A stretch of 64,000 nucleotides of DNA. Source: Candidatus Latescibacterota bacterium. GTDB taxonomy: Bacteria; Latescibacterota; UBA2968; GCA-2709665. Below are positions 12,580-38,272 of the stretch, one piece after another. A program made the translations under genes and the position numbers. The notes beneath the pieces were generated by a model. It made no database searches. It was not told the origin of the DNA and was given only the letters and a program-made list of their open reading frames with translations. The stretch's first letter is position 1; each line of letters opens with the position of its first letter. Location of the stretch: contig OZ252100.1 of NCBI GenBank assembly GCA_965248435.1, positions 2,272,001-2,336,000 on the forward strand, in the 5' to 3' direction.

Positions 12580-14595
12580 TTAGGCGATTATATCTGACTC
12601 CGACTGCGCTCGAAGCAAATCCCTTCCGTCCTGCGACAACTCGTAGACGCGAGCCGCCCCTCGCTTGTGCCAGTCCAGATAGCCGAGGTCGGTCAGCTTT
12701 CTCAGGTCGTTCTGAAACGTCCTTCGGGAATCTCCGCTTCCCGATGCAGGGGACGCGATACGATTCATCACCTCGTTTACCGCGGAACCCCCCTCCTGCC
12801 GATGAACGACCTCCAGAATCCGCCTCTGCCTCTGACTCAGGGATCGCAGAGGCGGAGCCGGCCTTCGGGTCTGCGTACCCAGCGCGTGAGAGATGTCTGA
12901 TTCCGTAAGGGTTGGGCCTTTGGCGTAAACGGCAACGGCGCGTTCGATTGAATTTATAAGATCCCTCACATTGCCCGGCCAGGCGTGGTTCATCAGCCGA
13001 TCGATCGCAGATCGCGAAAAGCCGCGGAGCACCTTGCCCGAACGCTGCGAGATCCGCTCGAGGAAGGTCTGAGCCAGCAGTGGGATATCCTCCGGGCGCT
13101 CCCTCAAAGGGGGCAACCGGAGAGGAAGGACATTCAGTCGGAAATAGAAGTCCTCTCGGAACTCACCCCGGGCAATCATCTCCTCCAGATCCCGGTTGGT
13201 CGCGGCGACGATCCTCACGTCGGTCTGAATCGTCTCAGTTCCCCCAACCCGTTCGAAGGCCTGTGTCTCCAGAACTCGCAGCAGCTTGATCTGAGTAACC
13301 TGCGGAATGTCTCCCACCTCGTCCAGGAACAGGGTTCCTTGGTGAGCCAGCTCGAACCGACCCGGCTTCGCACGGTCGGCGCCTGTAAACGCCCCCTTCT
13401 CATACCCGAACAGTTCGCTCTCTAGCAGCGTTTCGGAAAACGCAGCGCAGTTCACTGCCACAAAGGGTTTTTCCTGGCGTAAGCTGTTCTGGTGGACGGC
13501 CCTTGCGGCCAACTCTTTACCTGTCCCTGTCTCACCCAGGAGCAACACGGTTAGATCTGACGCGGCCACCTGTTGAATCGTCTGACGGACCTGACGCATC
13601 TGCGGACTGTCGCCGATCAACCCGTGAACCCGATCCTCACTTTCCAACGCGCGCACCCGCATCTCCAGCGTCTTGATCCGCTCGAGATAATACTCCAGAT
13701 CCTTCCGATGTATGGCCTCGAGAATCGTTTGCGAGCGGGCAAGAATCTCGCCGTCATCCTGCAGCCGGATCATACGCGTTTCCGGTCTCCAGGTCAGCGT
13801 CCACCCGCAGGAACAAGCCTTTGCGATTTCTGCCCGGGCGGGGTTGTCCAGCTCCTCAATCCGCCCGTGCATCTCAATGCGCGGATCCTCCGCAAACGTA
13901 TCCCCATATAGCTGAAGTGTGCCCTGGATATGGAGCGCGGTGTCCATGAAGAAGGCCCCGATGTCCTTTTCCAGCCCGAAAGGCTTGAGGCACGCCGCAA
14001 GCCGTTCACGGTTCGCATAGTGAAAGTGAATCTGAAGCTGGTTTTCCCCGTCGGCACGCATCTCGATATGGACAAGGTCGCCCGTAAAGATCTGGCTCAG
14101 GACCAACGGCCCCAGCCACTGCAACAGTACCCCGATGTTGCGCTGGTCGTGAGCCGGTGGCAAAGCGGTGATCAAGAGCCCAATGAGACTGATCCATTCC
14201 TTGTGGGGTTCAACGGCCACACCCCCACCGCCACGTCCCATCCCCACGCAAAAATATTCAGGTTTGGGGACATCGGAATAGGTCTTGGCGAATTCGAACA
14301 GGAACTGGACCACGTGGACAAACGTATAGCCCGGATGCGCCATCAACAGCTCGTACTCCTCTGGACTGGCAAGCGCACGGAGTTCCTCGGACAGGCGCTG
14401 CCCTGCGGCCGCATCCACCTCGTTCGTCAAATACCGCACCGTCGTCTGGGCCAGCCGATTCGTCACCACGATCGACTGTTCCTGGGGGCTGAGCGACGCA
14501 AGATCGGCGTTTAGACCCGTGATCTGTACCGCTTTTCGCAGCCGTTTGAGAAAATCAGATTCGGCGGCCGTCTGCGTGGACGACGGTTTTGCCAT
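12580..14595 (-). CDS. Sigma54-dependent transcriptional activator (bEBP) with an uncharacterised N-terminal domain and a winged-helix C-terminus
   Basis: Motifs [22 protein letters not shown] and WPGNVRDL. The C-terminus [10 protein letters not shown]...[12 protein letters not shown]...RGAARVY is wHTH-like rather than Fis-like. Start placed at ATG 14595. Confidence 0.92.
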
Positions 14596-20444: not shown

Positions 20445-20966
20445 AGTCCTCCTTCGTCGGACTCGCTTCTAAACTAATCCGAAGCAACATTCTCAAAAGC
20501 TGGCTGGACATTTCCTTTCTGGTGCCGTTGCTTTTGCCTATGAACGTAGGCCACGATCCTTTGAAGGTCCCTTTTTCCGAACGTCAGTGCTGCATAGCCC
20601 CCTTGCCACCTAAAGACGGTTTCCAGATCGAGTTGGCTGTTACAGAAGTGAGATGTAGAGCCCTTCAGCTTTTGAACCACCTCAGATACCGATATGGTAG
20701 GGCCCAGTCTGATAACGATATGTAAATGGTCCTCCATCCCGTTCACCGCGAACAGTCGATATCCGTATTCCCAGCATTTGTGAACGACATATTTATAAAG
20801 CTTCTCCTGGAGCTGTCGAGCGATGAATGGGTGCCTTCTCCACGTCGACCAGACCAGGTGATAAAATAGTTCTGTGTGAGCCTTTGACATGAAGACAATG
20901 GGCCATTGAATAGTCCGGCTTGTCCGGACTTCTCGCTGTTCCAGCGTGGAAATTTATTTCCACGCG
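20408..20966 (-). mobile_element. IS200-like/RAYT-like element bounded by palindromes
   Basis: Palindromes at 20408-20433 and 20942-20966, each with an inner AGTCC..GGACT hairpin, flank a Y1 transposase gene. Confidence 0.8.
20474..20890 (-). CDS. tnpA: IS200/IS605-family Y1 (HUH) transposase
   Basis: Motifs YHLVWST, EDHLH (HUH), LKG and FRWQGGY...YV..Q..HQ. Confidence 0.92.
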   Translation of the reverse strand: MSKAHTELFYHLVWSTWRRHPFIARQLQEKLYKYVVHKCWEYGYRLFAVNGMEDHLHIVIRLGPTISVSEVVQKLKGSTSHFCNSQLDLETVFRWQGGYAALTFGKRDLQRIVAYVHRQKQRHQKGNVQPAFENVASD

Positions 20967-21069
20967 AACGGCGGTGCAAGAAAAAATACCACGGACACGT
21001 TTGCTGCCGGCGAGGGCCGCAGGCTGGATCACCTCAATGGGATCATCGTGCGAAAAGACCGGCAGCCCT

Positions 21070-21225
21070 CAGCGCGGGAATGAATTCCCGCGCTGCAGAT
21101 TCATGAAGTCCTCCTTCGTCGGACTCGCTTCTGTGTGAGCCTTTGACATTGAAACAATTGGATCTCGAGTAGTCCGGCTTGTCCGGACTACTCGCTGTTC
21201 CAGCGTGGAAATTTATTTCCACACT
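21070..21225. mobile_element. Non-autonomous internal-deletion derivative (MITE/REPIN-like) of the adjacent element
   Basis: Both palindromic ends are retained; the left end is fused at TTCT to the first about 17 nt of tnpA (GTGTGAGCCTTTGACAT). Confidence 0.85.
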
Positions 21226-21314
21226 AAAAGGGCAGTGCAAAACGAATGCCACAGGCAGCTGGGCTGCCCGTGGCATTTGCAATCTGTCGGAACCACCGAG
21301 TCCGTGACCGAAAT

Positions 21315-35680: not shown

Positions 35681-36709
35681 CTACATCACCTTGGTGATTT
35701 CGTCACGTTCGAAAGTCGGCAAATCGATCAGTGAGCCGTCCCGGGCGACCTTCAGTCCGAAGCTCCGATCCTCCACGCGGCCAATTATCTCGCATCGGAT
35801 GCCCTCGGCGCGGATGGCGTCCCTCACCTGATCCGCATCGGCTTCGGCAACGCCAATCAGCAGCGCCCCGGAGGATATCACGCCCAGAGGATCGAGTCCA
35901 CATACGGCACATAGCCGGCGCGTCTCGTCTGAGGCGAACAGCGCCTCGGCCTCCAGTGAGAGACCGACGTCCGAAGCCGTCGCCAGTTCACGGAGTGCCG
36001 TGGCCACGCCGCCTTCGGTCGGGTCGTGCATGGCGTGCACTCGCGCTGAGTCGCAGGCGATTCGGGCCTCTTGCAAAATGCTGATCCCGGGATCGTGGAG
36101 GTAGTTCCGGGCACGGGCCAGTGTCTCAGCGTCGATTCCCTTCTCGGCAAGCACAACCGCAATCTCCCTGGCCAGGATGGCCGTGGCTTCCACCCCCAGT
36201 CCTTTGGTCATCAAAAGACGGTCCCCCACTTCGAGTCCGGAGGACCGGACGAGATCTTCCCGGCCGACCTCCCCCAGCATCTGACCGATCACGATCGGAC
36301 GATCGAGTCCCACCGTGATCTCCGTGTGCCCCCCGCAGAAGGAGACATCGATCTCACGTGCGGCGGAATGGATCGACTCAAAAATCGCTTCGATCTGCGG
36401 ATCATCGGTTCGCCCTTCCGGCAACAGCAACGTGGCCAGAAACCACCTGGGACGAGCACCCATCGTCGCGAGGTCGTTCGCATTCACGTGGATCGCATAA
36501 AACCCGATTTCGTCCGTCGCGAACGTAATCGGGTCCGTCTTCGCGACCAGACAGGTCTCGCCGAACTCGATGACCGTTGCGTCTTCCCCGATACTCGGAC
36601 CGACAAGGACTCGCTCACCCGCATCCGTGTAACGACTCAGAAGCCTGGAAAGCGTATCCAGCGGGAGCTTCCCTGGAGGGTGAAATCGCTTCAATGCGAA
36701 GTCCTTCAA
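35681..36709 (-). CDS. AIR synthase-related (PurM/HypE-like) protein
   Basis: Motifs GKLP, GEDA, KTDPIT, NANDLA, GGHTE and MHDPTEGG. Confidence 0.88.
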   Translation of the reverse strand: MKDFALKRFHPPGKLPLDTLSRLLSRYTDAGERVLVGPSIGEDATVIEFGETCLVAKTDPITFATDEIGFYAIHVNANDLATMGARPRWFLATLLLPEGRTDDPQIEAIFESIHSAAREIDVSFCGGHTEITVGLDRPIVIGQMLGEVGREDLVRSSGLEVGDRLLMTKGLGVEATAILAREIAVVLAEKGIDAETLARARNYLHDPGISILQEARIACDSARVHAMHDPTEGGVATALRELATASDVGLSLEAEALFASDETRRLCAVCGLDPLGVISSGALLIGVAEADADQVRDAIRAEGIRCEIIGRVEDRSFGLKVARDGSLIDLPTFERDEITKVM

Positions 36710-37077
36710 GTCTCGGAATCCAGGAAGACCGTCTGCCGATCCCCGTCAGAAAACGAAATGATCGCGCGGAGTGGTTCCCGTCCCGTGTTCACTGCGTTGT
36801 GAACGACGCCTTTGGGGACGCGGATCGTGTCCCCGGCCTCCATGCGGAAGACCTCCTCTCCCACCGCGTGTTCGCACTGCCCTGACAGCACGTGAAGAAG
36901 CTCTTCGCAGTTGGGATGGTAATGGGGGGGGTTCTGGGAACCCGGATTGATTGTTGCGATCCCGAAGGTCTGCTGCGCATCCTCGTTCAGCCGCTGACTC
37001 ATCAGCCACTTGAGGGCGCCCCAATCATACTGCTCTGTCGCTACTTCGCTCAAGCGTGTCACAGGCCCCGATTCCAT
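36706..37077 (-). CDS. Cupin domain protein
   Basis: HYHPNCEE...GD...P.GVVH cupin motifs. Confidence 0.9.
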   Translation of the reverse strand: MESGPVTRLSEVATEQYDWGALKWLMSQRLNEDAQQTFGIATINPGSQNPPHYHPNCEELLHVLSGQCEHAVGEEVFRMEAGDTIRVPKGVVHNAVNTGREPLRAIISFSDGDRQTVFLDSET

Positions 37078-37317
37078 CTCGCCTCCAGCGCGAAAAGACC
37101 GCTACAAACCTGGATAATTTCAATCTCTGAGCACACGATAGCCCATTTGGCATGACCTGTCAACACGTAAACTGGCTGAGAAAAACCAGCTGACGGGTGC
37201 AAATTCGCCATTTCCGCGCGTATCGATTCGGGCCTGTCGGCCCTCCCGAATCTCGGCCTTGTGAATATCCCGCCTCAGATCCGGCCCATACGATTTCGAC
37301 GGGTTCGGAATGCGATC

Positions 37318-37333
37318 TGGCATACCATTTGCG
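37318..37333 (+). promoter_or_regulatory. Sigma54 promoter with no downstream CDS
   Basis: TGGCATA-CCAT-TTGCG (GG-N10-GC). Confidence 0.7.
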
Positions 37334-37343
37334 AATACATCCC

Positions 37344-37426
37344 AGTGATCAGAATGGCGGTGGCCCGACCTGCCGCCGTTCCCTCAACTGGGAACCGGCG
37401 TCCCCCGACTGCCGGTTCCCTTTTTT
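37344..37426 (+). ncRNA. Candidate sigma54-dependent small RNA (about 83 nt)
   Basis: Lies between the -24/-12 promoter and the terminator GGGAACCGGC...GCCGGTTCCC-T6. Two hairpins, both with CCCGAC at the loop. The 5' end is inferred. Confidence 0.6.
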
Positions 37427-37435
37427 GTGGCAAAG

Positions 37436-37465
37436 AAAAACCCGGAGGAGATGCTCCGGGTTTTC
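37436..37465 (-). terminator. Intrinsic terminator for the nucleotidyltransferase gene (convergent with the sRNA)
   Basis: AAAACCCGGAG-CATCTC-CTCCGGGTTTTT on the minus strand. Confidence 0.75.
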
Positions 37466-37505
37466 TCTGTTTCTGCTCGTTCTGCAGGGGCCAGACTGCA
37501 CCTCC

Positions 37506-38272
37506 CTATCTACTGGTTCTCATGCACCGTTCAATTGTGTCGCGAACAAAGTCCAGCGTTTGCTCCAGATCTATTTCCTCCTCATTGCGCCACGATAGAG
37601 ACGCTTCGATCAATCTCGTTCGCTCCTTAGCAGCAGATTCCATCGCCCATCTTGCGGCAACCGGCTTTGAGACAATCTCTCCATTTTGGACTGTATAGAG
37701 TGCCCTGCACATCGTGAGAACGGCATACGCTCGATACTCACTGGTACGCAGAAAAGTGGGTTCCTTAAGCATGGGAGACCACCACTCGCCAAGCGTTCCC
37801 CTGGCAGCTCCCCGCAGTTCGTCCGGCCCCACCGGATCGATTAGCGTCTTCGGGTCTGGGCCCGCCAAGCAAACTCCCTTTTCTCGGAGAACGTGGAGGT
37901 GAATCACCCAGTCAATCCCGTGATTCCCCACGCCGAATTCCCAATCTACACCGATCGAGGGATACCGTGCCTGCGGATCATATCGCCTGAGCGCTCGCCG
38001 CGGAACATAGAAACCCTCCAGCTTCTTCGCCCATTTCAGACTGCTCGCTGAGATTCGATCGTGCATCCCCTTCAGATCGGAGATTGTTTCAGTTGAAAGT
38101 TCCTCCTGCGTGGCGACAACAAAATCGATATCACTCCGCAGGAGATCGAAATCCCGGTTGCGAGCGATCCGAATAGATACACGCCAAGAAGGCGATCCCC
38201 CAAAGTCGTCTGTACATCTGATTGAATGATTTGAAGTATCGCATTGACATCATTGTAAGGGGTAGGATTCAT
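37506..38272 (-). CDS. Nucleotidyltransferase plus DUF4111 (AadA-like) protein; frameshift near 38153
   Basis: GVYLFGSLATG continues in another frame as DFDLLRSDIDFVV (one G missing from a G run); C-terminal YAVLTMCRALY..SKP.AARWA. Confidence 0.8.

Follow-up and report, generated by a model that had tools for sequence, protein, structure and literature searches.

This study reports a genuine, previously undescribed family of small RNAs (sRNAs), predicted to be sigma-54-dependent, which, as far as searched, is restricted to one order of the Latescibacterota and to related metagenome contigs. One member lies at positions 37318-37426 of the window, by which the whole analysed stretch of 64,000 nucleotides is meant (contig OZ252100.1, positions 2,272,001 to 2,336,000; assembly GCA_965248435.1), and the window very probably holds here a genuine, conserved non-coding sRNA gene of about 83 nt that is predicted to be transcribed separately. 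A novel sigma-54-dependent sRNA at this place had been put forward in an original prediction made from the letters of the window alone, and comparison with relatives bears it out: the -24 part of the sigma-54 box is present in all 12 complete loci of the family and the -12 GC in 11 of the 12, the letters of the 5-nt spacer differ, and the hairpins are kept by compensatory changes. Two comparisons which that prediction had proposed, against Rfam and against homologues with attention to covariation, came out in its favour, as described below. The kind of RNA is already known, namely modular sRNAs with a repeated loop motif, and the family is not a new kind of system.

In the window, the gene and its downstream border are made up of the following elements.

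37318..37333, + strand: sigma-54-type promoter, with the -24 GG at 37319-37320 and the -12 GC at 37331-37332

37352..37381, + strand: hairpin 1, with 12 pairs and the 6-nt loop CCCGAC at 37364-37369, from sequence, fold and covariance-model match

37382..37389, + strand: linker between the hairpins, not conserved

37390..37426, + strand: hairpin 2, which is the intrinsic terminator, with its stem at 37390-37420, CCCGAC at 37404-37409 and T6 at 37421-37426

37437..37464, - strand: terminator of the convergent gene 37506-38066(-), outside the sRNA

The 16-mer of the promoter has its GG and GC 10 nt apart and is a close match to the sigma-54 consensus, which is quoted as TGGCAC-N5-TTGCW in PMC4253122. 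From the usual spacing after the -12 element, transcription is predicted to start at about 37344, and the first hairpin begins about 20 nt past the box. Hairpin 2 has the GC-rich stem and the following T run of an intrinsic terminator, and it was missed by a simple terminator scan because its loop is longer than 8 nt. No + strand gene lies downstream of the hairpins; the terminator is followed by the convergent gene, whose product is nucleotidyltransferase-like and has an AadA_C domain, and which is served by the separate terminator listed above. The -24/-12 box, the two hairpins with apical CCCGAC and the separate convergent terminator had all been named in the original prediction and were found as described there, whereas a role for the linker, which it had called anti-Shine-Dalgarno-like, is unsupported, the letters at 37382-37389 not being conserved in relatives. 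The 85-nt stretch folds at -44.8 kcal/mol, compared with -26.1 +/- 3.0 kcal/mol for shuffled sequences (z = -6.2; none of 200 as good). Hairpins with CCCGAC in the loop and at least six pairs number 171 in the genome, and those with at least 11 pairs only five, both hairpins of the window being among them.

The family was delimited with a hairpin model. When 61 related genomes were searched with BLAST, the matches were weak, but three of them were sigma-54 boxes followed by arrays of CCCCGAC hairpins, and the model, R1 (29 positions), was built from ten hairpins of three other genomes with the window excluded. When R1 was run on the 5.67-Mb genome of the window, the two hairpins of the window ranked first and second (E 0.018 for hairpin 2 and 0.032 for hairpin 1, with the next match at 2.5), which places the window in the family and shows the locus to be single-copy. 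Among 53 genomes of the order, R1 gave nine with matches at E <= 0.1, of which eight are true: G000, which is the window's own genome, G004, G008, G036, G038, G045, G048 and G050, the member of G045 being a fragment at a contig end; G004 is classed in the same taxonomic family as the window's genome. The ninth, in G017, is a plain terminator and not a family member. These eight genomes cover seven of the 11 genera of the order. With stricter filters, no true member was found by R1 outside the order among 151 genomes sampled across the phylum, and the only two matches there, in G098 and G087, were rejected, as both lie in coding DNA. Seventeen metagenome contigs were fetched through gene X, the conserved convergent neighbour of the RNA gene; seven of them carry clusters of R1 matches just past gene X on the opposite strand, and the other ten, some of them short, were examined by the R1 model search only. 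Removal of one duplicate (L266 = L269) and of a copy of the G008 locus (L263) left five new distinct loci (L261, L266, L272, L273 and L274), which brings the family to 12 distinct complete loci and one fragment.

Rfam 15 gave no match at the gathering threshold in the 64-kb window or in ten related loci, and in a permissive scan the best score was 20.9 bits, against thresholds of 35-80, with weak matches on terminators only. Full-text literature searches turned up no description of such an RNA. A scan with a degenerate pattern of the first hairpin returned at least 120 loci; among the matches listed, 119 were due to chance, mostly in high-GC genomes such as Streptomyces, and only L125, a record of G004, was genuine. 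A hairpin resembling hairpin 1 at C1:5169976 was also rejected, since it lies in coding sequence and has no promoter.

Each complete locus consists of the sigma-54 box followed by two to five hairpins, whose stems vary in a compensating manner and whose CCCCGAC loop is nearly invariant. Most hairpins have exactly these loop letters; a few, both of those in the window among them, differ in the first letter or have a loop of 6 nt. In all, 35 motif hairpins were counted in 13 loci, from the sequences of the loci as read together with counts of model matches: two each in G000, G008, L261, L274 and the truncated locus of G038, two or three in G036, G004 and G048, four in L266, L272 and L273, and five in G050. 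In the five-hairpin RNA of G050, the minimum-energy fold (z = -6.9) places each of the five motifs in a loop of 7 nt. In an ungapped alignment of ten hairpins, 93.6% of the cells pair, compared with 63.5% in shuffles (none of 500 reaching the observed value) and 24-55% in slid controls, and ten of the 11 pairs change on both sides. Among the 38 model matches, 94.1% of the cells pair and all 11 pairs change on both sides; this second alignment is fitted to the model and hence favours pairing, and 35 of its matches are true hairpins, the other three being the reverse strand of a palindromic hairpin and a neighbouring gene's terminator on both strands. Between orthologous first hairpins the stem letters change and the pairing is kept, and the last hairpin, the terminator, is conserved in both sequence and structure across genera. 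The 5' leader and the linkers are not conserved in the relatives, where they have other letters and other lengths. Because the loops thus hold the only conserved unpaired letters, they appear to be the working part of the RNA, and it is highly probable that they are its functional element.

Upstream of the promoter, two further boxes were found.

37172..37189, + strand: box A, an imperfect dyad about 146 nt before the promoter, putative enhancer-binding-protein site

37196..37210, + strand: box B, at -122 from the promoter, putative second activator site

Relatives of box A stand at -142 to -147 in L003, L016 and L018 and, by reading of the sequence, in L261 also, and an identical box B 10-mer is found at -122/-121 in G000, G004 and G048, which represent three genera, with two copies in L266. 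The boxes keep their distance to the promoter across the loci compared. The promoter, the boxes and their spacing together point to an activator of the NtrC family, and dependence of the RNA gene on both sigma-54 and an activator is predicted with considerable confidence. The genome carries a single copy of rpoN (Sigma54_DBD, E 9.5e-59) and 24 matches to Sigma54_activat, about 21 of which are strong and correspond to about 21 activator genes; the strict promoter pattern has 46 matches in the genome, about 16 being expected by chance according to our own arithmetic. The exact box B 8-mer occurs upstream of two of the 56 sigma-54-like promoters of the genome, one of which is the sRNA promoter. 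The other, C1:1326730(-), has one exact copy and one copy with a single mismatch at similar distances, and lies directly behind the gene of a 455-amino-acid NtrC/AtoC-like response regulator at G000:C1:1326876-1328244, beside glnD and near glnA. As box B is common to both promoters, this 455-amino-acid regulator is the first candidate for the activator, although the statistics are thin.

Two observations adjoin this subject. A further inverted repeat at 37225-37253, between the upstream boxes and the promoter, might be the site of a bending protein or nothing. The region L198 (G000:C1:1320001-1332000) contains glnD and a divergent NtrC-family activator, with glnA nearby, and its sigma-54 box precedes the genes of an RpoS-like sigma factor and a PtsN-like IIA protein; genomes of the order carry 6-15 paralogues of this RpoS-like type of sigma factor.

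To the left of the RNA gene in the window lies a conserved neighbour with its own promoter.

36706..37077, - strand: divergent cupin gene, conserved left neighbour (Pfam Cupin_2, E 8.8e-20)

37163-37135, - strand: sigma-70-like promoter of the cupin gene, from a promoter scan

In the family as a whole, the RNA gene stands 120-230 nt after the glnE stop codon on the same strand in seven of the 12 loci (G050, G004, G036, L261, L272, L273 and L274, with glnE of L272 and L274 partial or frameshifted). In G038 it follows 2.3 kb after glnE with one gene between, and in G008 it lies directly after the PII gene. The cupin gene adjoins the RNA gene in the remaining three loci (G000, G048 and L266), where PII-glnE no longer stands between them; in G000, PII-glnE is now found at C1:4501714-4505285 and ends in a plain terminator. 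The ancestral layout, read from gene order, was probably AIRS, the cupin gene reading towards it, then PII, glnE and the sRNA gene reading away from the cupin gene, and finally gene X converging on the sRNA gene, because throughout the order PII-glnE usually has the cupin gene as its divergent neighbour and the left flank of the window (ABC-F, Lar_N, HAD, AIRS and cupin) matches that of G050, where PII, glnE and the sRNA follow. Gene X encodes a protein of 340-400 amino acids (L003:388-1419, L004:1588-2814, L016:278-1414 and L018:350-1384) that matches no Pfam or NCBIfam family and has a weak APH-like match only; its invariant D-x-N-A-R-N stretch suggests a kinase-like fold. In the window gene X has been replaced and another gene is convergent, and gene X is also present where the sRNA is absent.

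Such absences are several. None of 21 genomes of genus g6 has the sRNA, and all 21 have glnE, a terminator and gene X. In genus g2 the sRNA has been lost, with nothing at the site in G006, and with remnant boxes persisting behind glnE in G002, where the promoter and the sRNA are deleted. In G001, which belongs to the window's own genus, a degenerate remnant of the last hairpin stands right after glnE.

Some further observations concern these loci. In L017 (G038:C1:5404933-5407961) the sRNA ends inside its third hairpin and is adjoined by an ISL3 transposase, so that it was probably disrupted by insertion. In L306 (G004:C1:3689700-3699700) PII and the cupin gene are separated by two inserted genes, one for a DDE transposase and one RelE-like. 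The in-frame TAGs noted in the cupin matches of genus g6 proved to be the genes' own stop codons. The whole stretch is present in contigs of run X1, which may be the source of this DNA, and three other runs contain only short, near-identical pieces over 36702-37120; a look-up of RNA runs found none that contains this DNA.

A nitrogen-control gene, glnE or PII, is thus in the neighbourhood in nine of the 12 loci. Given an ancestral home directly behind PII and glnE, the inducing signal may possibly be nitrogen or the carbon/nitrogen status of the cell, as the neighbourhood and the analogy to known sRNAs would suggest. As a separate observation, the leaders of amt (C1:4018586) and PII (C1:537325) in G000 share a pair of similar inverted boxes, without a sigma-54 box, which hints at a different regulator for the ammonium uptake genes.

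As to how the RNA may work, an enhancer-binding protein at the two upstream boxes (37172-37210) would activate sigma-54 RNA polymerase at 37318-37333, and transcription would run from about 37344 to the hairpin-2 terminator at 37426. The exposed loops would then pair, by kissing or as seeds, with GUCGGGG sites in mRNAs without the help of Hfq, the several loops being redundant as in NrsZ and NfeR1. This mode of action, that of a trans-acting, Hfq-independent and activator-dependent sRNA which pairs with mRNA through its loops, is the one we tentatively prefer, at a little short of an even chance.

The two closest counterparts in build are both nitrogen-regulated. NrsZ of Pseudomonas aeruginosa is dependent on NtrBC and RpoN, has three stem-loops with one loop motif, is encoded behind ntrC, and requires the loop motif for activation of rhlA (PMC4253122). 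On that account, the present family shares with NrsZ the sigma-54 promoter, the repeated stem-loops that expose one conserved loop motif and the tail-to-tail intergenic site directly behind a nitrogen-regulation gene, and, by the proposed analogy, would also share the action through the loop motif. The family differs from NrsZ in its loop motif and in its phylum, and has no sequence relation to it and no Rfam match; it follows glnE or PII rather than ntrC, and Hfq was not found in the window's genome. NrsZ is furthermore described as being processed into modules and as having spacer hairpins, and its induction by nitrogen limitation is shown, whereas for the present family such induction is inferred. 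NfeR1 of rhizobia (alpha-r14, 'cuckoo') works without Hfq and is induced by nitrogen stress; its three hairpins carry one and the same motif on stems that differ, and it pairs with ntrB (PMC10746234). With it the family has in common several hairpins with an identical, ultraconserved, C-rich unpaired motif and differing stems, together with the proposed independence of Hfq, the proposed redundancy of the motifs and the presumed wiring to nitrogen stress. However, the motif of NfeR1 is a 9-nt anti-Shine-Dalgarno sequence, whereas that of the present family is not complementary to the Shine-Dalgarno sequence; NfeR1 is, on the same account, activated by LsrB and repressed by NtrC and not driven by sigma-54, and there is no homology between the two.

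Several results weigh against an sRNA that is sigma-54-dependent, linked to nitrogen and directed at mRNAs. In the G004 locus the promoter has GA instead of GC at -12, and the two hairpins of the window score weakest in the family. The loss of the sRNA in many lineages implies that it is dispensable. No sigma-54-like box was found in 11 upstream regions of glnA, PII and amt genes of the genome, so that a classical NtrC regulon is not evident there and the link to nitrogen is drawn from neighbourhood and analogy. The searches for targets, which rest on one genome (G000) and on a home-made model of 4857 genes, an earlier and cruder scan based on open reading frames having been too noisy, point the same way. 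Start codons show no enrichment of the loop complement, which has 23 sites in the 4855 start regions and so ranked 20th among the 42 permutations of its letters, and the 16 annotated genes among the 23 with sites have no common function; they include FliF, a DegT aminotransferase, an RpoS-like sigma factor, an IS110 transposase, a NirD-like Rieske protein and IscU. The 6-mer was found within 200 nt upstream of two of 15 nitrogen genes, which is close to the background of 6.5%. A 10-nt complement of the loop in the leader of an RpoS-like sigma-factor gene behind an NtrC-family activator was considered as a target and rejected, as the site is missing in the orthologues of G004, G008, G036, G038 and G048, the leader of G050 being cut by a contig end.

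Other searches for partners gave the following results. No complementary sites were found in or before gene X, nor, by reading, in the cupin leader. When sites were ranked by duplex energy, an IS110 leader present in three copies came out highest together with several unrelated genes. The copies in question are three identical IS110-family transposase genes (G000:C1:1444512, 2066514 and 3861699), which carry, 38 nt ahead of the start codon, 10 nt complementary to the hairpin-2 loop; apart from that of one other gene, this leader forms the best-scoring duplex in the genome. All three genes for tRNA-Pro (G000:C1:128910-128986, 140582-140658 and 2594819-2594895) end in the letters of the loop plus CA, and the complement of the loop is found in tRNA-His, a tRNA-Met and tRNA-Leu(GAG), where the variable loop meets the T stem. 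A link to tRNAs was set aside as a probable coincidence, since about one chance match per 6-mer is expected in the 49 tRNAs.

The alternative to pairing that deserves most attention is a hairpin array that acts as a decoy, in which identical loops titrate an RNA-binding protein recognizing the CCCCGAC heptaloop. A protein sponge had been one of the two functions suggested in the original prediction, the other being a regulator that pairs with ribosome-binding sites. CsrB, RsmY and RsmZ, which titrate CsrA, and CrcZ, which titrates Hfq/Crc, are such arrays of hairpins or motifs, with varying copy number and one short recognition motif, and CrcZ is sigma-54-dependent. The near-invariant loop on freely varying stems, the copy number of two to five between species and the lack of any conserved single-stranded region outside the loops would all suit a decoy, as would the lack of start-codon enrichment of complementary sites and of a conserved target. 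However, the GGA and A-rich motifs of the known decoys are absent from the family, whose loops are CCCCGAC, and the proteins known to be titrated, CsrA (PF02599) and Hfq (PF17209), were not found in the 97.5%-complete genome. R1 finds no further such hairpins in the genome, so that there are no obvious mRNA sites from which a titrated protein would be released, and nothing at the locus points to a candidate protein, gene X occurring also without the sRNA. Pairing between loops and mRNA is favoured over titration because NrsZ and NfeR1, which have the same build, act by pairing, and titration is considered unlikely. More specific, and somewhat less likely still, is the idea that the heptaloop array forms the decoy arm of a global RNA-binding-protein system, under a nitrogen- or carbon-sensing activator, in a phylum without Hfq and CsrA; if true, a CsrB-like circuit would have been invented independently in the Latescibacterota.

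Two further explanations would deny the element its standing as an sRNA gene. It could be a cis element, either a complex 3' end and terminator of glnE or a promoter whose read-through RNA is antisense to the convergent gene, and its position directly after glnE in seven of the 12 loci would be in keeping with this, as would the last hairpin of G008, which has no good T run and might allow read-through into gene X. Yet the element has its own conserved promoter and upstream boxes, it is intact in the three loci without an adjoining glnE, in one of which, the window, gene X has been replaced as well, a strong terminator closes most members ahead of the convergent gene, and glnE has just one plain hairpin behind it where nothing more than a terminator is needed; this reading is very improbable. 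Smaller still is the chance that the arrangement is fortuitous, a repeat of the repetitive extragenic palindromic (REP) type or a small protein-coding gene. Bacterial genomes often contain intergenic repeats rich in hairpins, and the open reading frames 37197-37598 and 37261-37698 (+; translation table 11) cross the hairpins; but the locus is single-copy in the genome, its position is conserved across genera, the changes in its stems are compensatory, the frames traverse two terminators and run antisense to a gene, and the varying number of hairpins means that no reading frame is kept. The preferred reading accordingly remains that of a separate sRNA gene, with loop pairing as its tentative mode.

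Other known RNAs resemble the family less. Qrr and GlmY/GlmZ are stand-alone sRNA genes with a -24/-12 promoter and an upstream activator site, and are not known to carry a repeated identical loop; the family has no Rfam match to any of them, and chaperone dependence differs. The targets of ANTAR proteins consist of two hairpins whose hexaloops have A as the first and G as the fourth letter, and an identity with these was rejected, since the loop of the family has 7 nt and begins with C.

Elsewhere in the window, further sigma-54-related features were noted. A second strict sigma-54-like box lies at 21251-21236 (-), within the region 20870-21251, which holds a 99-nt module twice (21227-21129 and 20968-20870, 88% identical), each copy with two hairpins, and an 11-codon open reading frame between the copies; the region, which has no Rfam match, may encode a further structured RNA under sigma-54 control. 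A third strict sigma-54-like box at about 4784 (-) stands 63 nt before an open reading frame of 333 codons, and an activator gene (744 amino acids) is found at about 13120-13620 (-).

In conclusion, the family described here has a promoter of a defined class, likely activator sites, one 7-nt element that is very probably the functional one, and a conserved home beside PII-glnE. After NrsZ and NfeR1, it is the third independent case of a multi-hairpin sRNA with one motif beside nitrogen control, which suggests that this design is recurrent. In full-text literature searches, no paper was found on RNA-based regulation in the Latescibacterota (WS3), a phylum without cultured members, and the family offers an entry point for post-transcriptional control in bacteria without Hfq and CsrA.

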